Below, piece by piece: positions 6,149-52,164 of a stretch of 64,000 nucleotides of DNA. Each line of letters opens with the position of its first letter. Positions within the stretch are counted from its first letter, which is position 1. The notes beneath the pieces were generated by a model. That model saw only the letters and a list, made by a program, of their open reading frames with translations, had not been told where the DNA came from and made no database searches. The position numbers and the translations under genes were made by a program. Source of the stretch: a virus; the IMG/VR virus record IMGVR_UViG_3300036834_000211, positions 32,001 to 96,000 of that record. One strand, 5' to 3'.

Positions 6149-6639
6149 GCCTCCTCTGGAAGGCCATCCTGGGACGGGTCAACAGGCGCGCATTCGACTT
6201 CCCCGGCGCGGCCTACATCGCGATGATCTCGTGGATGCACGTCTCTCAGGCAATCTTCGTGCACCTGGATTCCCGGGCTGCGGACTTCCAGCACCTGCAC
6301 GGTGCGACGGACCTGATCGCCATCTTCTTGGCCTTCCACTACTTCGGCTGGGACATCGATGCCACGTTCCTGCAGGCGTTGATATGCTGCGCGTCCTCGC
6401 TGGCCGTCGTCGGGGTGGTATTCTCGGTCGGGTGGGTTCGCCTGGCCACGTTCGTGCCGCAGCACTTGGTACTCGGCGCGATGGGGTGGGGCGGGGTGCT
6501 GGCGGCCTGGCAAGGTCACTACCTCGACGGTACCCCCATGTCGTGGGGGCACATCGGTGCCGACCAGATCGGCTACATAACTCTATTCATCATCCACTCG
6601 TACGCCATCTGGCGTCGCTGCCGCTGGCAGGACGAGTGA
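6145..6639 (+). CDS. Multi-pass membrane protein (possible holin-like)
   Basis: About 4 hydrophobic segments, basic C-terminus; ATGA overlap. Confidence 0.5.
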   Translation: MSLLWKAILGRVNRRAFDFPGAAYIAMISWMHVSQAIFVHLDSRAADFQHLHGATDLIAIFLAFHYFGWDIDATFLQALICCASSLAVVGVVFSVGWVRLATFVPQHLVLGAMGWGGVLAAWQGHYLDGTPMSWGHIGADQIGYITLFIIHSYAIWRRCRWQDE

Positions 6640-6939
6640 ATGCCGGGCGGGGGCCTGATAGTAGCACTAGTCGGAGCAGGTACGGGTCTGCTGATCTTGT
6701 TCCTGATACTGGGAAGACGAAATTCCACCGCAGTCAGCACCAACGGGTGGCGGGCGACGGTTGCGCAGCAGCACAGGATCGAGGAGCTCACGCGCGAGAA
6801 CTCCAGGTTGAGGAGAGACCTCGTTACCGCGCAGGAGGACGTCATGACCATCAGGAGTGACCTCGCCAGGTCGCAGCAGGATGTGATTCGTTGGCGCCGT
6901 CGGTACGAGCAGGAAGTGAGACGAGGCAGTCCCGGATGA
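6640..6939 (+). CDS. N-terminal TM plus coiled-coil protein (possible lysis accessory)
   Basis: Hydrophobic N-terminus followed by coiled coil. Confidence 0.5.
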   Translation: MPGGGLIVALVGAGTGLLILFLILGRRNSTAVSTNGWRATVAQQHRIEELTRENSRLRRDLVTAQEDVMTIRSDLARSQQDVIRWRRRYEQEVRRGSPG

Positions 6940-6952
6940 CGAGGTATGTGAG

Positions 6953-7354
6953 GTGATCGCGCCGACAAACACGTTCGACGTCCTCGGCGACCTGGTCTCC
7001 AGGGTGCGGTGCAAGCCGGGGTGGGACTTCAAGCTGGTCGACGAGGACGGGGCGATGCGCCTGGTGATCACCGTGCGCGGTCGAGACTCGTACGACGAGG
7101 ACCTGCCGATGAACGTGCGACACTTCCTGCCGGTCCCGACGACGACGTACAACGAGAGGAGCTGGCGGCGGTGGGTGTTCGAGCAGTGCAGGCGCGTTGA
7201 GAATCACGAGCTGGGCGAGTGGTTCAGGATCGGCGACGAGCGCCCGTTCGCCCCGCTGCATGGTCCCGGCGAGGATCCGTACACCGTCCACGAGTTCCGC
7301 GACGAGGCGGACGCGCTGACTACCCAGGACGGGTCGATGCGGTCGAGGTCCTAG
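6953..7354 (+). CDS. Hypothetical phage protein
   Basis: ORF with GC3-rich codon usage and upstream GAGG. Confidence 0.6.
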   Translation: MIAPTNTFDVLGDLVSRVRCKPGWDFKLVDEDGAMRLVITVRGRDSYDEDLPMNVRHFLPVPTTTYNERSWRRWVFEQCRRVENHELGEWFRIGDERPFAPLHGPGEDPYTVHEFRDEADALTTQDGSMRSRS

Positions 7355-37754: not shown

Positions 37755-38055
37755 AGTTGTCCTTCCACCTAATGATCCACTCGTCCCACTTTTCCGGGTC
37801 GAGTAGGGTGAACCTGCCGCTTGGCGCGACCGCGTAGATGCAGATGCCGAAGGTCCAGTCTCGTTCTCTCGCATAGCGCACTGCCCAAGGGAAGATCTTG
37901 AACCGCGTCTCCTTGCGTCCGTTGCGCAATTCGAAGACCGCGAAGTACGAGGCCCGGTCGAACACGGCGGCCATCCAGTCATACTGGGACTGTCCGAAGT
38001 CGTGCTCCGACCTGCCCCTGGGGGCTGTCAGTGGCTGTTGGTGGCTGGTGGGCAT
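37735..38055 (-). CDS. Hypothetical protein
   Basis: First ORF of the leftward block. Confidence 0.55.
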   Translation of the reverse strand: MPTSHQQPLTAPRGRSEHDFGQSQYDWMAAVFDRASYFAVFELRNGRKETRFKIFPWAVRYARERDWTFGICIYAVAPSGRFTLLDPEKWDEWIIRWKDNYDSIRR

Positions 38056-38059
38056 GTGC

Positions 38060-38190
38060 ATATAAAGGCCTGCCCTGCAGAAAATTGCAAGCGAAAATTG
38101 CACGTTTCCGCAAAAAAAAAATGCATCAAACCCCAAAATAGGGCTTGCAGTTTTCTGCAAACCTGCTACTATGCGGAGTCGGAAGGGAAT
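38060..38190. promoter_or_regulatory. Divergent control region with a sigma70-like promoter and palindromic operator
   Basis: TTGCAG-N16-TACTAT (38145-38172, with TG extension); palindrome TTGCAG-tttt-CTGCAA; repeated gaaaattgca; A10 tract. Confidence 0.65.
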
Positions 38191-38197
38191 TTGAAAG

Positions 38198-39286
38198 ATG
38201 CCAAGTCGGTCGGACGCATTATGGTATCGGAGGGAGTGGCAGCGGGAGGTGCAGCGGGCTCAGCATGTCGGCTATAGCTACTTCGGTCGTCCTCAATCAC
38301 CCGTCATCCCGTGGTACCAGGCAGAGATCGCATTCCTGAGGCGCCGGATCGAGAGCCTGGCCGTCAACCGCATCGCTCAGCAGCAGACAAGACCCGCACT
38401 GGATCTGCTGGCACACCCGGTTGCGGAAACGGCTCCCGTAGCACTCAATGTCCCATCGGAGCCGAGGCCGACGACGGATGTTCCGACGTTCGGGATTGAG
38501 ATCGAGTGCATCATGCCACAGTCGATGACCCACTCTCGATTGGCGGGCCTTCTAAGCCAAGTTGATGGGATCCAGGCCTCTGCAGAGATGTACAACCACC
38601 AATCCAGAGATTACTGGAAGATCGTAACTGACGGGTCACTGGGAGATTATAGCAGGGGTGCTGAGTTAGTCAGCCCGATCCTGCGGGGAGAAGAGGGCTT
38701 CGAGCAGGTCCGCAAGGTGTGCGGAATTCTCAATGCCAACAATGTCAAGGTAAATCGCCGGTGTGGCTTCCACGTCCACGTGGGCGCTCGAGATCGAGGA
38801 GTGTCGTTCTTCCGTAGTCTATTGATGCTCTATGCCCACTACGAGCCGGTGTTAGACACGTTGGTGTCCCCCAGTCGTCGGGCGAGTGGGAACACGTACT
38901 GCCGGTCGACAAAGGTCCTGGTTGACGGCCGCAGGCAGGAGATCGAGAGCGCGGTGGACATCGATGGGCTGACGAATGCCTATTCGAGGAGCGGACGTAA
39001 TGACCGCGGGGGTGACCACGGGAGACTTGTCAAACTTAATCTGGCCGCATACTGGCGTCACGGGACGGTCGAATTCAGACACCACCAAGGGACGGTGAAT
39101 GCTGAGAAGGCAGAGACGTGGATTCGGTTGTGCATTGCACTGGTGGAGGCCGCTGGTGCTGGCGTCGAACCCGGTGAGGAGACAATTGACGCACTGGCCG
39201 AGAAGGTTGGTATGGTTGAGACGCTACCGTACTGGCGGCGCCGGCAGTTGGAGCTGAGTCACATCCAAGTGACGGAGCGGACGTGA
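38198..39286 (+). CDS. Amidoligase (COOH-NH2 ligase type 2)
   Basis: 'TFGIEIEC', 'WK..TDGSL', 'ELVSPIL', 'CGFHVHVG', 'GTVEFRHH.GT'. Confidence 0.9.
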   Translation: MPSRSDALWYRREWQREVQRAQHVGYSYFGRPQSPVIPWYQAEIAFLRRRIESLAVNRIAQQQTRPALDLLAHPVAETAPVALNVPSEPRPTTDVPTFGIEIECIMPQSMTHSRLAGLLSQVDGIQASAEMYNHQSRDYWKIVTDGSLGDYSRGAELVSPILRGEEGFEQVRKVCGILNANNVKVNRRCGFHVHVGARDRGVSFFRSLLMLYAHYEPVLDTLVSPSRRASGNTYCRSTKVLVDGRRQEIESAVDIDGLTNAYSRSGRNDRGGDHGRLVKLNLAAYWRHGTVEFRHHQGTVNAEKAETWIRLCIALVEAAGAGVEPGEETIDALAEKVGMVETLPYWRRRQLELSHIQVTERT

Positions 39287-40791: not shown

Positions 40792-40887
40792 GGCTCTCAC
40801 ATGCAGATTAGGGTCCCTGCGTATGCAAGGTAGCACTCGTCTTCTCAATCAAGCTGGACGGCACGCTCCGTCCAGCGCTGGCTCGAT
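40778..40887 (-). repeat. Dispersed intergenic element copy 3 (inverted)
   Basis: 40822-40887 aligns ungapped with 62893-62958; internal hairpin gctggacgg/ccgtccagc. Confidence 0.85.
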
Positions 40888-40904
40888 CGTCGAGGTATCC
40901 TAAA

Positions 40905-41318
40905 TTGGAACGTTACGTTATCTACGAAATTATCGGACGAAAAGTAGGATGCTGTAAGAATCTTAAAAAGCGTATTCGATGGTACGAGAGGATAGAAGGT
41001 AAGGCTCCTAAGACTATAGTTCTAGAAATCTTCTATGGAAAAACAGACCAAGAAGCAGGTGATCGAGAATGGTATTGGGCTGATAAACGAGGTTACTCAC
41101 GCGGAAAACATTATTCAGTAAGAAATGGTCTTAATACCGGTATAGTCGGTAGAATTGGCGCTCGCCGTCTTACGGAAATAACAACTTCCAAAGAACGATC
41201 TAAATGGGCTCGTAAAGGAGGGTTTCGACAGAAAATACAATGTCCTAATTGCGGTAAGATAGGAGGATTAGCTCCTATGAAGCGCTGGCACTTTGACAAC
41301 TGCCAGCATAAGTACTAA
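40905..41318 (+). CDS. AT-rich putative homing-endonuclease-like protein (GIY-YIG-like N-terminus, C-terminal zinc finger)
   Basis: 'YVIY.....KVG.......R', conserved E; 'CPNCGK.G....MKRWHFDNC'; low GC. Confidence 0.6.
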   Translation: MERYVIYEIIGRKVGCCKNLKKRIRWYERIEGKAPKTIVLEIFYGKTDQEAGDREWYWADKRGYSRGKHYSVRNGLNTGIVGRIGARRLTEITTSKERSKWARKGGFRQKIQCPNCGKIGGLAPMKRWHFDNCQHKY

Positions 41319-42232
41319 TGAGTATTACAGACATCTATATTCGCTACGGTGTACCACACCGAATCGACGCAGGTCGGGGCGGGTGGGTCTCGACCCACTG
41401 TCCCTTCTGCACCGGCAGTGCCGACTACCACCTGGGATTCAGTCTCGAGCACTCGTACTTCCGCTGTTGGCGGTGCGGATGGCACGACGCTATCTCGACG
41501 TTGTCGAGCCTATGTCACGTAGACCGCAGCGCGGCGTTCGACATCTACCAATCAATCAGATCCGGTCCCAGCGGTCCCGTCCGCGGTGCCAAGGACAAGG
41601 AAGCGCAGGTCAGGGTCAACCTGTCCCTGTACAAGCGTCCCCCGGGCGTCGACTCGATGGCGACTAACCACCGACACTACCTCGAGGGTCGAGGATTCGA
41701 CCCAGATCAGATCGAGCGCGAGTGGGGGGTGATGGGGACGGGGCCGATGTCGTACCTCGACTGGATCGACTACCGATTCAGGCTCTTCATCCCCGTGCGG
41801 TGGAACGACGAGGAGGTGTCCTTCCAGACCCGCGACGTGACGGGCAAGTCCGATCGCAAGTACATCGCCTGCCCGACCGAGCGCGAGATCAAGCACCACA
41901 AGTACGTCCTCTACGGTCGGCAGGAGTGCTGGGGCGAGACCGGGATCGTCGTCGAGGGAGTCACCGACGTCTGGCGCTTGGGACCGAGGGCCTGCGCCAC
42001 ATTCGGCATCCAGTACACCGCCGAGCAGGTGGCCGTCATCGCCCGGGCGTTCCGGCGCGTCGCGATAGTGTTCGATTCGGAGCGTCAGGCGCAGGCGCAG
42101 GCGAGGAAGCTCGCAGCCCAGCTGCGCCTGTGGCTTGAGACCCCACCGATCGTGGTGGACTTGGGAGCAGGCGTTGACCCAGGATCTATGAAGCAAGATG
42201 ACGCGGATCACCTGGTGAGGGAATTGACATGA
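41318..42232 (+). CDS. DNA primase (zinc finger plus TOPRIM)
   Basis: 'CPFC...CWRCG', 'IVVEGVTDV', 'FD', 'DPG'. Confidence 0.85.
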   Translation: MSITDIYIRYGVPHRIDAGRGGWVSTHCPFCTGSADYHLGFSLEHSYFRCWRCGWHDAISTLSSLCHVDRSAAFDIYQSIRSGPSGPVRGAKDKEAQVRVNLSLYKRPPGVDSMATNHRHYLEGRGFDPDQIEREWGVMGTGPMSYLDWIDYRFRLFIPVRWNDEEVSFQTRDVTGKSDRKYIACPTEREIKHHKYVLYGRQECWGETGIVVEGVTDVWRLGPRACATFGIQYTAEQVAVIARAFRRVAIVFDSERQAQAQARKLAAQLRLWLETPPIVVDLGAGVDPGSMKQDDADHLVRELT

Positions 42233-42414
42233 ATGAAGATGTCTTAAAGGAGCACTTAACCAGAACTAGAGATCTGCTGTGCGAGGCGAGGCAGTATGTC
42301 GAGATCGTCTACAACGAGACGTCTCATGGCCCAGTCGGTGGCAGTGCTCGGCGGGACATGGAAATCTTATTGAGAAATATCGACGAGGCACTAGATAACC
42401 GGTACGGAGTGTGA
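42229..42414 (+). CDS. Small hypothetical protein
   Basis: ATGA overlap with primase. Confidence 0.5.
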   Translation: MNEDVLKEHLTRTRDLLCEARQYVEIVYNETSHGPVGGSARRDMEILLRNIDEALDNRYGV

Positions 42415-42415
42415 G

Positions 42416-42790
42416 ATGAATGTGGGTGGCATCGTCGGCCTCGGCACCGTCAGCCTGATCGTCGGCGGACTCTGTGCCGCCGTGCTATGGCCGGCGCTGC
42501 AGCAGCGGCACCGCGCGGAAACGCTACCTCCGTCGCCTCCGTACATCACGCAGTGGAGCAGTCGGCTGACCGATCCTGTAACCGCGAGCCTCATGGCTGA
42601 GTGGGAGTCTGCACACCAGCAGGATGTTGCGGACCATCCGGCGTCTACGTCTCGTGCTGACCCCTCGACGCTGAGGATGGTCTCGCGTCCGGGTCGCCAC
42701 CGCCGACATCATCCTCAGCAGTACTTCCCCCATGCCGCCCCCGGTCAGGATGCCGAGACCCGGAGACTGAACCTGGAGCAGGCAAGATGA
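42416..42790 (+). CDS. Membrane-anchored hypothetical protein
   Basis: N-terminal hydrophobic segment. Confidence 0.55.
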   Translation: MNVGGIVGLGTVSLIVGGLCAAVLWPALQQRHRAETLPPSPPYITQWSSRLTDPVTASLMAEWESAHQQDVADHPASTSRADPSTLRMVSRPGRHRRHHPQQYFPHAAPGQDAETRRLNLEQAR

Positions 42791-42852
42791 AGAACTCTAG
42801 ATGCGCTGGTGGGCTATTGCAACCCACTTCGTTTTATGCTTATCCTATACAT

Positions 42853-43370
42853 GCGAATGGCGCGAAGGTGTGAGCCTCCACGCCATTCTGGATCGATTTA
42901 CCGGACCGAACGGCGAATGATCCTGGGCAAATATAGCTTCCCCCTCCGGAAGTTGCAAGCCCCAAGGACCCCATTCAAAGTTAGGCTCGGTAGGTGGCTC
43001 CAAATCGATAGCCACTCTGGCGTGTTCAGATACGATCGTGCGAACGAATCGTTGGGGGAACGTAACGCGTGGCACCAGGCACACAAATGATCGCTCTCCT
43101 CACCCGAGAGCGGGCCGGAAGTCGTTCTGCTCGCGACGACCGGGGGACAAGCGTCATGGCGTACGTCCGGGGATCACTGCGACAGGTCCAACCTGCCAAA
43201 TCCTTGGAACAGCCAGGAGGGGGTGCATAAATGAGGTACAGCGTGACCGCCTCAACCGACCGGATTAAATTCGGCAACGGTGCACCTGGGAGCAGATTTG
43301 CTACTATTTTCAAATAGTTAGTAAAGACACCCTCTTCCGCCTTCGGGCGGAAGTGTGTGCTACTTTTCTT
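42853..43370 (+). ncRNA. Candidate large structured non-coding RNA
   Basis: More than 10 consecutive hairpins including GCGA and cUUCGg loops; upstream TTGCAA-N18-TATCCT; downstream T run; no convincing ORF. Confidence 0.5.
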
Positions 43371-43544
43371 AGCTTTCTAAGTAAGCTAAGCCTAGGCTTT
43401 TGATTGTATCACGCGCACGCGCGCGTCCTCAGTTTGCGAAATTCGACAATTTTTTCTTCGGTAGTCGGATTTTCTGGGCCGGCCACCGGTATATTCTACT
43501 GGGAAGTGGGCTGCGGTAGCCTGATTTTCGGGTGAGGTAGTGAG

Positions 43545-43766
43545 ATGATTAGGGACCAGTTCAATCGTCGACTCTGCAGGACGATCCAGGACTACTGGGC
43601 CCGTCGGGGATACGTCGTGAGGGTCGATCCAGTGAGTGGTCCCTACCGGTGCGCCGAGGGCTTCCCGATCGGGGAGATCGTTAGCGACCTGGGGCCGACG
43701 GGGTTCCCCAGCCGTCGGGTGCATCAGGCGGGTGGTGCCACCCTCGCGTTGAGAGCGGGTGACTGA
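43545..43766 (+). CDS. Small hypothetical protein
   Basis: RBS GAGG; 'I.DYW..RGY.V.V' pattern. Confidence 0.55.
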   Translation: MIRDQFNRRLCRTIQDYWARRGYVVRVDPVSGPYRCAEGFPIGEIVSDLGPTGFPSRRVHQAGGATLALRAGD

Positions 43767-44421
43767 GATGGTACTGTCCGACATCGAGATACTGACCAGG
43801 CGCGCGGCCGGTGAGATCGTCATCGACCCGTTCGACCCGGCCGACCTCGGTAGCGCGAGCTACGATGTCAGGTTGGGAGAGCACTACTACGAGGCGTCAA
43901 CAGACGTGAGTAGGATCTACAACATCTACAGCGAGTCCGACGTTAGGCGCGTCTGGGTCGGTCCCAAGATGGCCTGCGCGGTTCGCGATCTTAAGGACCT
44001 GTGTCCGGGCGCCGACTGGTCCAACATCCGCGACGACGATCGGATCGTCATGCTCGGACCCAGGGCCAACCTGCTGTGTCACACCCGGGAGTTCATCGGC
44101 GCGCGCCGCGGCAGTACCACGATGATGAAGGCTCGTTCGTCGATCGGGCGCAGTCTGGTTAACGTCTGCCAGTGCGCCGGGATGGGCGACGTGGGCTACT
44201 TCAACCGCTGGACGATGGAGATCCACAACCGGAGTGACTATTGGATCCCCCTAGTGGCCGGCCGGCGCGTCGCCCAGATCGTCTTCCTGGAGACCGGAGA
44301 GACCGAGAGGGTGTATATCAGCAAGTACCAAGGGACCGACGACCTGGAATGCCTCGTTCGATCGTGGGCACCGGAGTCGATGCTGCCAGGATTGGACAAG
44401 GATCGGGACGTCAGGTCGTGA
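43759..44421 (+). CDS. dcd: dCTP deaminase
   Basis: 'LSD..I', 'SYDVRLG', 'ARSS.GR', 'AG..DVGY...WTMEI', 'R.AQIVF'. Confidence 0.85.
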   Translation: MTEMVLSDIEILTRRAAGEIVIDPFDPADLGSASYDVRLGEHYYEASTDVSRIYNIYSESDVRRVWVGPKMACAVRDLKDLCPGADWSNIRDDDRIVMLGPRANLLCHTREFIGARRGSTTMMKARSSIGRSLVNVCQCAGMGDVGYFNRWTMEIHNRSDYWIPLVAGRRVAQIVFLETGETERVYISKYQGTDDLECLVRSWAPESMLPGLDKDRDVRS

Positions 44422-44799: not shown

Positions 44800-45519
44800 G
44801 TGCGCACGATCACGTCGTTTCCGAATCATCAGGTCCGCCGACGCGAGGAATTCCCCCGCACTGCCGACTTCGTACGCGACCGCTCGAGGATACTGGCTGC
44901 CGTGTGCGAGTCCCTCGCTCAGGCTAGACTTGCTCGTTTCAATCGATCCACTCCACCCGAGCACTCGGCTAGTTGCGTAAAGTACCTGGAGAAGCTGAGG
45001 AGCGAGTTGGGACCTCCCCACCCGCTCCTCCGGATTCTCGACGTGGTTCGGTGGTACGAGGCTCACTGGCACGAGGGTCTCGTGCCATGGGTGGAGGGTG
45101 GCCCATCTCTCTACTCAAAGTTTAGTCGCCTGGAGGCGATCATGCTCGACCGTACACGTCAGGAGCCTACGACTACGGTTGACGAAGTCCTGACCAATCT
45201 GTTCAACGGTAGTAAGATTGTATCCGAGGCGTTCAAGTCGGACATATTGGTCCGCGCTAAGAGACTGAGCCTCGGGAGCGTGAGTGAAGTCGACTTGATG
45301 ACCCGGTTGGGTGAGCTCTATGGTAGCATACGTGCCGCGCGCGTACCGGAGGCAGCCGGTCCGATAGATCTCCTGCGACGGTACATCAATTGGCTGAGCG
45401 AGAAGGATTGGCAGATGACGATGCGCGTGTTGAGCACTAGTAGTCCCGCCTTCCAGCAGTTCAGGCGCGAGGAGGCCTCATTGCATCCACTCGGCGCCGA
45501 TCCGCTGACTGGAAGATGA
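44800..45519 (+). CDS. Hypothetical protein upstream of helicase (possible loader/initiator)
   Basis: Coupled to the helicase start; function inferred from position only. Confidence 0.5.
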   Translation: MRTITSFPNHQVRRREEFPRTADFVRDRSRILAAVCESLAQARLARFNRSTPPEHSASCVKYLEKLRSELGPPHPLLRILDVVRWYEAHWHEGLVPWVEGGPSLYSKFSRLEAIMLDRTRQEPTTTVDEVLTNLFNGSKIVSEAFKSDILVRAKRLSLGSVSEVDLMTRLGELYGSIRAARVPEAAGPIDLLRRYINWLSEKDWQMTMRVLSTSSPAFQQFRREEASLHPLGADPLTGR

Positions 45520-47096
45520 ACCTCGAGCGTCGAATCATCACCGGCCTGATAGTCAGTGCCGACTTCCTCCAGCGCGTCTCGCCGTTCTGGTCCGACGAGC
45601 TGATAGAGGCTCCAGAGTTTCGTCGAATCGCGCGCTGGTGCCTGTCTCACTACGAGCGGTACCAGCGCGCTCCAGATCGCGACATCGAGCAGATCTACCT
45701 GTCGGCGATCCGAGATGAGTCCATTCCCAAGGCCGAGGCCGAGCTGATCGAGGGGATCCTGAGCGCGGTCTCAGACGACTACGAGCGCGGTGATCAGTTC
45801 AACTCGGCGTACCTGTACGATCAGACGGTGAAGTTCCTCCGCGAGCGCGAGCTGGCTCAGCACAACGAGCGCGTGGGAGATCTGATCGAGCGCGGGCAAC
45901 TGGAGGAGGCCGAGGCACTGGCCTCCGAGTTCCGACCCCGCAGCTGGGCAACCACCCGCGGTCTCGACCTCGGCACCGAGGCTGGCTACGCGGCGGTCCG
46001 GGCCGCGTTCGAGCAGGCTAGTGCGCCGATACTGAGGTACCCCGGTGCGCTGGGGGAGATGCTCAATCGCCACCTGATCAGGGGAGGTTTCGTCTCGCTT
46101 GAGGGGCCCGAGAAGCGCGGTAAGACGTTCTGGCTGACCGACATGGCGTTCCGGGGACTGCGTCAGAAGTGCAACGTCGCCTTCTTCCAGGCGGGGGATC
46201 TGACCGAGAGTCAGTACCTGCGCCGCATGGCGGTGCACTTGGCCAGGTGCTCCGACGACCCCGAGTACTGCGAGGCCCACTGGCGTCCAGTGGGCGACTG
46301 CGCTCACAATCAGTTCGACCTGTGTCGCCGGTCGGACCGCAACTGCGACTGCGGCATCTACGACGAGTCACGCTACGAGGAGTTCAAGGAGAATCCGAAC
46401 GAGTTGCAGCAGTTGTCCAAGCTGGTCAAGTTGGCCCAGTTGAATCCGAGCTACTCGCCGTGCGACAGCGCGTCGTGCGACGAGCGCTGGCCCGTCGTGT
46501 GGCTCGAGTCCGTACCGTCGAGGGAGCCACTGACCGGCGACCGCGCGGCCCGCATCGTCCGGGCGTTCTTCGAGCGGTATAGACGCCGCTTCCGGCTGGC
46601 GACGTACCCGAACGGGACGCTGACGACCGACGAGATGCGCTCGTGCTTGGACGAGTGGGAGCGGGAGGACTTCGTCCCGGACATAATTGCAGCAGACTAC
46701 GCCGACATCATGTCCGCGCCCGACCGGGAGTACCGGCATCGGCAGAACGCAATCTGGATGGGGCTCCGCGGGATTAGCCAGGAGCGGCACGCGCTGGTGG
46801 TTACCGGGACCCAGACCGATGCCGCCAGCTACCGGTCGGAGCTGCTCGGGATGGGCAATTTTACCGAGGATAAGAGGAAGCGCGGACACGTTACTGCGTC
46901 GTTCGGATTGAACCAGGATCCTCAGGGCCGCGAGAAGACCTTGGGTATCATGCGGATCAACACGATCGTGGCCCGTGAGGGTGATTTCAACCCGACGCGC
47001 GTGGTCACCGTGCTGCAGCACCTAGCTGCAGGCCGTCCCTTCGTGGAGAGCTTTCGCGAGAGCAATTCGCGACTTCGCGCTGTATCTGGAAATTAG
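45516..47096 (+). CDS. dnaB: DnaB-like replicative helicase with Cys-rich insertion
   Basis: Walker A 'GPEKRGKT', Walker B 'IIAADYAD', 'TGTQ', 'EDKRK..HV'. Confidence 0.8.
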   Translation: MNLERRIITGLIVSADFLQRVSPFWSDELIEAPEFRRIARWCLSHYERYQRAPDRDIEQIYLSAIRDESIPKAEAELIEGILSAVSDDYERGDQFNSAYLYDQTVKFLRERELAQHNERVGDLIERGQLEEAEALASEFRPRSWATTRGLDLGTEAGYAAVRAAFEQASAPILRYPGALGEMLNRHLIRGGFVSLEGPEKRGKTFWLTDMAFRGLRQKCNVAFFQAGDLTESQYLRRMAVHLARCSDDPEYCEAHWRPVGDCAHNQFDLCRRSDRNCDCGIYDESRYEEFKENPNELQQLSKLVKLAQLNPSYSPCDSASCDERWPVVWLESVPSREPLTGDRAARIVRAFFERYRRRFRLATYPNGTLTTDEMRSCLDEWEREDFVPDIIAADYADIMSAPDREYRHRQNAIWMGLRGISQERHALVVTGTQTDAASYRSELLGMGNFTEDKRKRGHVTASFGLNQDPQGREKTLGIMRINTIVAREGDFNPTRVVTVLQHLAAGRPFVESFRESNSRLRAVSGN

Positions 47097-50280: not shown

Positions 50281-51011
50281 GTGATCCTATCATCTACGTG
50301 TTGCTGAGCGGAGGGATCGACAGTGCCACCGCACTGGGCCTCGCCGTTGAGAAGGTGGACGAGGTGCGATGCGTTACGATCGACTACGGACAGCGTCACC
50401 GCCGCGAGATCGAGGCTGCCGCTGCCCTGGCTGAGATATACGACTGCGAGTACGATCTCATCTCGATGCCGATGGGACGGACGATGCTGACCGATCCGAC
50501 GATTGAGGTGCCCGACGTCGACTATAGCGAGATCATCGGCGTATCACCCACCTACGTCCCATTTCGCAATGGTCTCATGCTGTCGACGGTGGCTTCTTAC
50601 ATTGCGGGTCGGCATCACGACCTATCTCAAAGGTTTATCGACCCTGGTGATGGCGGCATTGGAAAGCCACTCAATCCTGATTACGACCGAGACTGTTTGA
50701 TCTACTGGGGGGCCCACGCTGAGGATGCAGCCGGCGGGGCGTATCCGGACTGCACTGCCGAGTTCGTGGGTGCGATGTCGTGCGCGATTGCCATCGCAAC
50801 GTCGCATAAGGTTAGATTGGTGGCACCCTTCGTCGCGATGTCGAAGGCCGAGGTTGTCGAGCGAGGGTCCCTACTGGGCGTGTCGTATCGGTGGACGTGG
50901 AGTTGCTACAAAGGGGGTGAGAAGCACTGTGGGGTCTGTCCTACGTGTCGAGCTCGCAAGAGGGCCTTCCTCGATGCGGAGGTTGCGGATCCGACTGAGT
51001 ACGCCGAGTAG
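50277..51011 (+). CDS. queC: 7-cyano-7-deazaguanine synthase
   Basis: 'SGGIDS', 'YGQRH..E', 'TYVPFRN', 'YPDC', 'TWSCY.G...HCGVC.TC..R'. Confidence 0.95.
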   Translation: MSDPIIYVLLSGGIDSATALGLAVEKVDEVRCVTIDYGQRHRREIEAAAALAEIYDCEYDLISMPMGRTMLTDPTIEVPDVDYSEIIGVSPTYVPFRNGLMLSTVASYIAGRHHDLSQRFIDPGDGGIGKPLNPDYDRDCLIYWGAHAEDAAGGAYPDCTAEFVGAMSCAIAIATSHKVRLVAPFVAMSKAEVVERGSLLGVSYRWTWSCYKGGEKHCGVCPTCRARKRAFLDAEVADPTEYAE

Positions 51012-51013
51012 CC

Positions 51014-51109
51014 GCCTGCGCGTGCCGTCCAGCTTGACAAAAGTATTTTGGGCTATCGCTATAGCCTCCAGGCTCCTCGCTGGGATGGACGAGCCTTAAA
51101 GACGATTTC
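51014..51109 (+). repeat. Dispersed intergenic element copy 4
   Basis: gcctgcgcgtgccgtccagcttgacaaaag...gctatagcctcc (as copy 1) plus tggacgagccttaaagacgatttc (as copy 2). Confidence 0.85.
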
Positions 51110-51122
51110 CTAGGAGAGCAGT

Positions 51123-51494
51123 ATGACTGAGACTTTTACTCGTTTGGTGGACAAGCATCATTCTCCATTGATTTTAAGGAAATATACGAAATGGGGCTTT
51201 CCTGTTTATGTGTCGATCATTGCCGATAACGATTTGAGTGACTTTGATGAAGTGGTAGTTGGGTATGTTGAGGAACATAAGGTTGAGGGGTGGGTTAATG
51301 ATATTCAGAGATTGCGTAATCTTGCTGGTGAATTAACTGAGTATTTGTGTCGAAAATATGATAAAACTGAGGGGGTAGGTGTGATGCTCTACGTCGACAA
51401 ACTGTTTGTGGTCTCTCTATTCGGGGATCATATGAATCATGGTTCGTGCAAACAAGAATTCTATGATTTAGTAAAGATATCTGCCCATATTTGA
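51123..51494 (+). CDS. AT-rich hypothetical protein within the modification cluster
   Basis: RBS AGGAG; low GC. Confidence 0.6.
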   Translation: MTETFTRLVDKHHSPLILRKYTKWGFPVYVSIIADNDLSDFDEVVVGYVEEHKVEGWVNDIQRLRNLAGELTEYLCRKYDKTEGVGVMLYVDKLFVVSLFGDHMNHGSCKQEFYDLVKISAHI

Positions 51495-51504
51495 GGTCAC
51501 CAGG

Positions 51505-52164
51505 ATGAGAAAAGGGTACAAGCAGACATTAGCACATCGAATTTCTCGATTGGCTTGGTTGAAAGATAGTGAGAAACTTAGACAAGCGATTGAGAAGTCG
51601 TCGACATCGCAGCGAGGTATTCGACGCCCTTGTATATCCGGAAGCAGACATCCAAATTATGGTAATATTGGTCATTTGTCTGATCGCAAGTGGGTGACTA
51701 ATGGGATTGAGAATAAACGGATTTATATTAATGAAGAGATTCCATTGGGTTGGCGGTCTGGGATGTTATTAAAGAAGAAGAGTAGTAAAGTACACCGTTG
51801 TTTAGTTGGTTCATTTACGAATATTGAATGGGAGGGATTAAAGCGATACTACGATTTTAGATGTCATTGCTGTCGAAAACAAGAACCGGAGGTTAAACTT
51901 GAGAAGGATCATATAGTTCCGGTCAGTCTCGGGGGATTGAATATTATTGAGAACATTCAGCCTCTTTGTGTTCGATGTAATCGGATTAAGAAAGCCCGTA
52001 TTATTGCTTATAGAGTTAATAGGTTTCATAGTCTAGTTCGTATGCGAGAACGACTAGAGTCTATTCTAAGGAAAAGAGCTGCGTTAGGTTTGCTTGATAT
52101 TGAGTTTACTAGAATGCTGGCCTTCGAATTGGGGGTGCAGCTTCCGACGTCGATTGGTATTTGA
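51505..52164 (+). CDS. HNH endonuclease with NUMOD-like N-terminus
   Basis: 'CHCC......LEKDHIVP.S.GG.N...NIQPLC.RCN'; 'HPNYG', 'KWVTNG' motifs; low GC. Confidence 0.85.
   Translation: MRKGYKQTLAHRISRLAWLKDSEKLRQAIEKSSTSQRGIRRPCISGSRHPNYGNIGHLSDRKWVTNGIENKRIYINEEIPLGWRSGMLLKKKSSKVHRCLVGSFTNIEWEGLKRYYDFRCHCCRKQEPEVKLEKDHIVPVSLGGLNIIENIQPLCVRCNRIKKARIIAYRVNRFHSLVRMRERLESILRKRAALGLLDIEFTRMLAFELGVQLPTSIGI

Follow-up and report, generated by a model that had tools for sequence, protein, structure and literature searches.

The window analysed here is a stretch of 64,000 nt from a soil virus, namely bases 32001-96000 of its IMG/VR record, which has a length of 114.5 kb and an estimated completeness of 94%. 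The locus under study lies within a run of plus-strand replication genes, all neighbouring genes being encoded on this strand, and is interrupted by a gap between two small ORFs (table 1). The preliminary description had placed its element between a primase and a dCTP deaminase gene, and both gene identities were confirmed. Among cultured phages, the nearest primase match stands at 28% (tblastn, phage database), and DNA searches of the phage database with the locus returned no match; on sequence grounds, the lineage is one of uncultured soil phages of approximately 115 kb without a cultured relative.

Table 1. Features of the locus in window coordinates; L053 is the related locus with which the window is compared.
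Feature	Position	Strand	Remarks
Primase	41318-42232	+	identity confirmed
61-aa ORF, then 124-aa ORF	between primase and gap (stop of 124-aa ORF at 42790)	+	
Non-coding gap	42791-43544	none	approx. 750 bases, between the 124-aa ORF and the 73-aa ORF
Conserved block	42807-42985	none	approx. 180 bp; identity approx. 70-80%; only part shared with L053
Hairpin H0	42808-42828	-	stem GGTGGG/CCCACT, first TTGCAA (42817-42822) in loop; in both minus-strand folds
Promoter-like TTGCAA-N18-TATCCT	42817-42846	+	L053: TTGCAA-N18-TAGCGT
Hairpin H1	42855-42888	-	14-bp stem; loop CUCACA (minus) / UGUGAG (plus)
Hairpin H2	42887-42927	folds on both strands	GGATC/GATCC invariant at the base, middle part irregular, CCGA within the 7-nt apical loop
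Promoter-like TTGCAA (42958-42953)-N17-TATATT (42935-42930)	42930-42958	-	L053: TTGCAA-N17-TATGTT
Hairpin H3, GCTTCC-N6-GGAAGT	42936-42953		within the minus-strand promoter spacer; L053: ATCCCC-N4-GGGGAT
Middle stretch	42986-43297		non-coding, not conserved, not unusually folded (z -0.95/-0.40, folded whole)
Strong hairpin cluster	43298-43390	both strands	43298-43326, 43334-43353 (UUCG loop) and 43368-43390; z -3.4 to -5.4
Direct repeat 43456-43477 / 43511-43532 and conserved GTATATTCT (43489-43497)	43456-43532	+	ahead of the 73-aa ORF
73-aa ORF	start 43545	+	first gene after the gap
dCTP deaminase	43759-44421	+	identity confirmed
112-aa ORF, then 239-aa ORF	between dCTP deaminase and DnaB	+	
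DnaB	45516-47096	+	

The protein database holds this primase in a 243-aa form only (P0001, 80% of the ORF); the public gene call probably starts too late, since relatives align from residue 1 of the 304-aa ORF, N-terminal cysteine pairs included. Directly upstream and abutting the primase, a 137-aa ORF (40905-41318) lies in an island of low GC content (window 40800-41320, 0.39-0.48, the genome averaging 0.61); neither Pfam nor PHROG has a match for it, and it gives the impression of a gene gained recently. Another low-GC island, longer than this one (0.36-0.45), occurs at window 51000-52100, inside the region of a 7-deazaguanine cluster. On the other side of the gap, the 239-aa ORF (window 44800-45519) matches only the C-terminal 180 aa or so of a 410-430-aa protein of distant relatives (25% identity, E 3e-18; L037 661-1923 and L028 5928-7229), the N-terminal approximately 160 aa being missing in the lineage of the window. 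The 239-aa ORF likely encodes a helicase-loader or initiator-like protein, for which there is no Pfam family. The gap is absent from more distant relatives, in which the primase is followed directly by the 410-430-aa gene and then by DnaB.

Homologues of the locus were sought by scanning viral contigs with the primase and the dCTP deaminase, and metagenome and viral contigs with primase profiles, which yielded 70 loci. A single one of these, L053, carries the element (L087 being the same contig, IMGVR_UViG_3300036834_000217). Its primase is 64% identical, its gene order is that of the window, and a non-coding gap of like size is found at approximately 6242-6985. IUPAC pattern scans of viral contigs and genome contigs gave chance matches only, besides L087, and the source soil DNA run, the one sequencing run listed as containing this DNA (no RNA run was among those listed), has contigs that comprise the source contig and an L053-like contig, with no third variant. 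Closer primases, 60-72% identical, are present in the protein database (P0002-P0019), outside the locus comparison. A DnaB scan also retrieved a much closer relative (L169, IMGVR_UViG_3300036821_000193; DnaB 86% identical), whose 14-kb contig ends approximately 800 nt short of the non-coding region.

That the gap does not encode protein, as first proposed, is borne out by several lines of evidence. Third-position GC periodicity, which reaches 0.8-0.95 in the neighbouring genes, is absent from 42791-43544; no ORF inside it matches Pfam; the longest ORF, of 93 aa, has no homologue among 5.8 billion predicted proteins; and none of its reading frames is conserved in-frame with L053, so that the search for a conserved protein-coding frame, which would have spoken against an RNA element, found none. 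A group I or II intron splitting a gene was also considered and rejected, as each of the flanking ORFs has a homologue of its own in L053 and no intron model matched. A small ORF at 43232-43318 behind AGGAGG was discarded likewise, being not conserved (L053 reads AUG-UGA at the corresponding spot).

The preliminary description had further taken about 520 nt of this gap for one discrete, densely folded RNA. Every helix that it quoted exists, at the coordinates given for it, and most appear in the minimum-free-energy fold. The 529-nt stretch 42847-43375 folds better than dinucleotide-shuffled versions of itself (z -4.09 for the plus and -3.79 for the minus strand), and a second run of the same stretch alongside 17 other 529-nt windows of the genome gave z -4.86, these background windows having a mean z of -0.67 (sd 1.4, minimum -2.76). 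As its z lies beyond all 17 same-genome windows, the excess folding is real. However, it does not extend throughout: when folding is scored in windows of 150 nt, an excess is seen at 42800-43010 (z -1.8 to -3.2) and at 43220-43430 (z -3.4 to -5.4) only, whereas values across 42980-43250 run from 0 to +1 and the middle stretch remains at shuffle level (table 1). The high score of the 529-nt stretch came from two short structured ends.

Conservation follows the same divide. In an nhmmer comparison, window 42807-42980 aligns to L053 6249-6422 (E 5.5e-10), and the covariance model of this block (R1) finds one copy in each of the two genomes (145 and 133 bits) and none in the remaining loci or in a 92-kb more distant relative. 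The conservation of these left 180 bp matches that of the flanking genes. The remaining 560 nt or so cannot be aligned: the local alignment score against L053 is 21 versus a shuffle mean of 20, and no collinear 12/14 blocks are shared between the window and L053 in the rest of the gap. The fold profile of L053 is nevertheless like that of the window: its left block is structured (z -2.3 to -3.0), its middle, of approximately 340 nt, is not (z about 0; -0.32/-0.23 for the counterpart of the middle stretch, of approximately 338 nt), and its right end carries a very strong hairpin (z -4.5 to -6.9), with arms of 31 nt, where an A+T-rich zone begins. In both phages, about the same length separates the conserved block from the terminal hairpins, and the intervening sequence is unrelated; this spacer of approximately 310-340 nt is T-poor (17-18% T) and non-coding in both.

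One discrete structured RNA of approximately 520 nt is thus not what the comparison shows, as only the left 180 bp or so are conserved and the middle is neither conserved nor more folded than shuffles; structure conserved along a length of more than 400 nt, as in large structured ncRNAs, was not found. What provisionally stands, from two genomes, is a smaller conserved RNA element outside all Rfam families. In Rfam 15, the whole window has no match at the gathering threshold, whether to ROOL, GOLLD, HEARO, RNAI, tmRNA and RNase P or to the group I/II intron, ribozyme and riboswitch families. With E values up to 10 on 42600-43650, the best match is tpke11, at 22.6 bits versus a gathering score of 43, and a tRNA/tmRNA scan found none. 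The element is hence unassignable to a known class, as initially stated, and the comparison with ROOL and GOLLD then put forward does not hold, since their covariance models match at no threshold.

Within the conserved block, two palindromic TTGCAA hexamers stand 136 bp apart, at 42817 and 42953, and each belongs to a promoter-like site facing the other. The minus-strand site is the only sigma-70-like site called in 42000-44200, and its predicted start falls near 42923, at the base of H2. The plus-strand site, reported as promoter-like at the outset, does exist, and L053 retains both its hexamers and its spacing; its -10, however, is weak, and poor in L053, and the consensus scan does not call the site. 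Of the hairpins, H0 reads GGAGGG/CCCTCC in L053, with one U-A to A-U swap; H2 has an apex shifted by one column between the two genomes; and H3 differs in four of its six stem pairs, a hairpin of 6-7 bp being found at the same place in both phages.

Sites of the form TTGCAR-N16-19-TAnnnT occur eight times in the genome versus a chance expectation of approximately two (a rough estimate). Five TTGCAR-type sites lie outside the locus, and the four that were read are all in promoter-like non-coding stretches. A supposed second copy of the element at genome position 104269 (TTGCAA...ATGCGAAC) turned out, on reading, to be an ordinary promoter ahead of an ORF, and a long-range inverted repeat (42812-42830 / 43503-43521), considered as the ends of an element, is not conserved as such in L053. 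Elsewhere in the genome, a near-identical promoter- or operator-like module (CTTGCAGTTTTCTGCAAACCTGCTA, accompanied by A runs and by additional TTGCA/TGCAAGC repeats) is present in three copies (window 38050-38200, genome 113020-113150 and genome 19280-19340), in divergent or operon-start regions. The copy at window approximately 38.1 kb coincides with the cumulative GC-skew minimum of the genome and may be an early-promoter and/or origin region.

At the right end of the gap, the hairpin cluster includes the inverted repeats I4 and I6 and stands at the start of an A+T-rich stretch, A+T-rich sequence being found at 43200-43500. The 31-nt-arm hairpin of L053 lies at the equivalent distance and is unrelated to this cluster in sequence. 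The UUCG hairpin, initially described as preceding a T run, does exist; it is not a canonical terminator, as the T run comes approximately 11 nt past the stem and the terminator scan did not call one. The repeat-bearing zone at 43456-43532 is probably the promoter/RBS zone of the downstream operon. A 10-nt match between an anti-Shine-Dalgarno loop (43098-43107) and 43528-43537 was discarded, approximately 0.6 such matches being expected by chance in the region (an estimate). At the place corresponding to 43456-43532, L053 has a duplicated 42-nt RBS/start module (7127-7168 and 7287-7328, 83% identical), of which the window retains only a 22-nt remnant repeat. This module leads into two ORFs starting MIRNSF/VIRDSF, the first of which encodes a strongly hydrophobic peptide of 37 aa; another small ORF of membrane type is located at L053 6987-7137.

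The pairing of H1, in which 8 of 14 pairs differ between the two phages, bears on the strand from which an RNA could be made. On the minus strand, 27 of 28 cells are paired and seven of the eight differing pairs are kept, three by double changes and four via G.U. On the plus strand, 19 of 24 cells are paired, the four G.U changes become A.C mismatches, and five of the differing pairs are mismatched in one or other phage. The minus-strand hairpin is more stable by 5.4-6.7 kcal/mol (-23.4/-24.5 versus -18.0/-17.8 kcal/mol). Likewise, an 81-nt minus-strand RNA from the predicted start folds with one topology in the two genomes (high ensemble frequency, 0.75 and 0.40; z -5.6/-4.1), and a 125-nt RNA takes the same three-hairpin shape in both (z -4.0/-3.1). 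The use of G.U in the outer pairs of H2 and in a helix P1 (UGCGA/UUGCA) favours the plus strand, and the minus-strand call depends mainly on the four G.U pairs in H1, a sign test of approximately 1 in 16 (an estimate). As two sequences enter the comparison, the covariation statistics are weak: the minus-strand score is reached by 62 of 500 shuffles, whereas for a plus-strand structure (see below) 6 of 500 reach the percentage paired and 33 of 500 the covariation.

Starting from what was computed, namely the conservation of the block and of its promoter boxes, the compensatory hairpins and the strand bias of H1, we infer transcription of either strand, the RNA ends and a mode of action as follows. 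With a probability that we put at roughly 40%, the conserved unit may be a small cis-antisense RNA cassette of approximately 180 bp at the left end of the gap, similar to OOP or to plasmid countertranscripts. Its main product would be a minus-strand RNA of approximately 75-120 nt, which would start near 42923 from TTGCAA-N17-TATATT and in which a conserved single-stranded linker would connect the stem-loops H2', H1' and probably H0'. Since all neighbours are on the plus strand, such an RNA would be fully complementary to any plus-strand transcript leaving the primase operon or starting at the weaker facing promoter at 42817-42846, in which case the two RNAs may form a sense/antisense pair. As with the countertranscripts of plasmids, lambda pO/OOP and P22 sar, action would be in cis, through duplex formation and nuclease cleavage or through the collision of converging polymerases. 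A cis target fits the search for trans targets, as no complementarity of at least 13 nt was found elsewhere in the genome. The outcome would be to limit or uncouple transcription into the 73-aa ORF, the dCTP deaminase, the helicase-loader-like gene and DnaB, and the remaining 560 nt or so of the gap would be a rapidly evolving spacer, with strong hairpins and the A+T-rich start zone of the next operon at its end.

As judged from sequence, the unit has a promoter of its own opposite to the surrounding genes, and in the two sequences its stem-loops are kept by compensatory change on the antisense strand. An intrinsic terminator at the 3' end was not found: in neither genome is H1' or H0' followed by a U tract, and the terminator scan calls nothing there. 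Two further observations are not accounted for by the antisense reading, namely the palindrome H3, which is part of the promoter spacer and so falls outside the RNA as proposed, and the unconserved spacer of approximately 310 nt, which has a similar length in both phages.

A plus-strand ncRNA starting near 42853 from TTGCAA-N18-TATCCT, in effect the transcript of the preliminary description with only its head under selection, is to our mind somewhat unlikely, and would be compatible with the antisense RNA. Its 5' domain would form a four-way junction of approximately 110 nt, in which UGCGA/UUGCA closes H1, H2 and H3, and a variable tail would run to the hairpins at 43298-43390. In this structure, 83.8% of cells pair versus 30-49% in slid controls, with four double changes, and the 113-nt domain reaches z -4.2 and -5.0. 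The retained promoter hexamers with their 18-nt spacing, the persistence of H3 despite its four differing pairs and the similar separation of the terminal hairpins from the predicted start (445-537 versus 468-536 nt in the two phages) also speak for a plus-strand RNA. Yet L053 has a poor -10 (TAGCGT), the plus-strand form of H1 contains A.C mismatches in both genomes, the minimum-energy plus-strand folds of the two genomes disagree, and H0 with its compensatory swap sits upstream of the start, while the tail is unconserved, unstructured and without a canonical terminator. Nor need an RNA structure be involved at all: the TTGCAA boxes and the inverted repeats (GGATC...GATCC, H3 and H0) might be promoters and operators, used by a phage regulator and the RNA polymerase of the host, that would mark where one operon gives way to the next. 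The density of TTGCA-type boxes in the other promoter regions of the phage, the location of H3 exactly between -35 and -10, the position of the block at an operon junction and the about equal folding of both strands overall would agree with such a control region acting as DNA. We nonetheless regard it as unlikely, since the 14-bp stem of H1 is kept through seven changed pairs, four via G.U, a pairing that matters for RNA and not for duplex DNA or a symmetric operator, and the stem sequences of H0 and H3 change with pairing kept.

The replication pre-primer suggested by the preliminary description can be formulated as a transcription-primed origin, in which a plus-strand transcript from 42817-42846 would act at the A+T-rich hairpins of 43290-43470, as a primer or in an R-loop, and the minus-strand RNA would be an inhibitor like RNA I of ColE1; this we hold to be quite improbable. 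The locus does lie within the primase/helicase module, A+T-rich DNA and strong hairpins follow approximately 450-600 nt downstream of the promoter in both phages, the transcripts of the facing promoters would overlap for approximately 70 nt over two stem-loops, and the helicase-loader-like protein is without the N-terminal 160 aa or so present in gap-less relatives. However, no iterons were found: the repeats are short and in two copies, rather than three or more direct repeats beside an A+T-rich element, although an A+T-rich stretch is present. The cumulative GC-skew minimum moreover lies at window approximately 37-38 kb, in a divergent promoter region some 5 kb upstream, the two phages have no sequence in common in the middle and 3' parts, and there is no RNAI-type match in Rfam. 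Taken further, the gap would be a complete RNA-controlled replication start unit, bringing the copy-control logic of ColE1 into a virus: a plus-strand transcript of approximately 0.5 kb would prime or open an origin where the A+T-rich hairpins lie, the minus-strand countertranscript would target the conserved stem-loops at the 5' end of this transcript, and RNA control would replace the DNA-binding half of an initiator protein lost by the lineage. This scheme we consider highly improbable. Finally, the gap could be leftover DNA without function, from a decayed gene or an insertion scar, with incidental hairpins, as its absence from more distant relatives and the lack of conservation over most of its length might suggest; this is hardly credible for a region whose left 180 bp are as conserved as the flanking genes, with structure-preserving changes, and whose architecture and length are the same in two phages diverged to 64% primase identity.

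The antisense reading can be set against several known systems. Lambda OOP is a 77-nt antisense RNA of the replication region, and its promoter pO converges with pR in a pR-pO dual promoter system (PMC3985674). The proposed cassette resembles lambda pO/OOP as a short RNA gene with its own promoter, opposing an otherwise one-directional operon of replication genes, and in its proposed cis action via a duplex with the converging message and/or promoter cross-talk. It differs in having no sequence or Rfam relation to OOP; OOP also overlaps the 3' end of cII, whereas the predicted phage RNA would overlap non-coding RNA, and OOP ends at an intrinsic terminator, whereas the phage locus is without a visible U-tract terminator and its transcript is predicted only.

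Plasmid countertranscripts offer a second comparison. These include RNA I/RNA II of ColE1, CopA/CopT of R1 and the attenuation RNAs of pT181 and pIP501, with P22 sar/ant as a comparable case. As in these systems, the two promoters stand face to face, and their predicted transcripts would overlap for approximately 70 nt across two or three stem-loops; as in the plasmids, this overlap would occupy the head of a long untranslated plus-strand stretch beside replication genes. In contrast to the plasmids, the host element is a 114-kb lytic-type phage, no Rfam model matches, loop motifs are not shared, and the locus is without a demonstrated origin, Rep leader peptide or attenuator. The likeness to the RNA-primed origin of ColE1 type is one of layout only, the GC-skew minimum of the phage being elsewhere. 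With ROOL and GOLLD, the locus has in common a non-coding, hairpin-rich stretch in a phage genome; the conserved structure is nevertheless of approximately 110-180 nt here, not 500-800 nt, and the interior is unstructured and unconserved.

The element is left unclassified and is regarded, provisionally, as a new example of a familiar element type. The call of a large ncRNA is corrected, a single relative having sufficed to reveal that selection does not act on most of the stretch. If transcribed, the conserved block would represent a new family of small RNAs in a lineage of uncultured soil phages of approximately 115 kb, and would place control by antisense RNA or convergent promoters between the primase and helicase genes, the logic of lambda and of plasmids thus being found in a very different virus.
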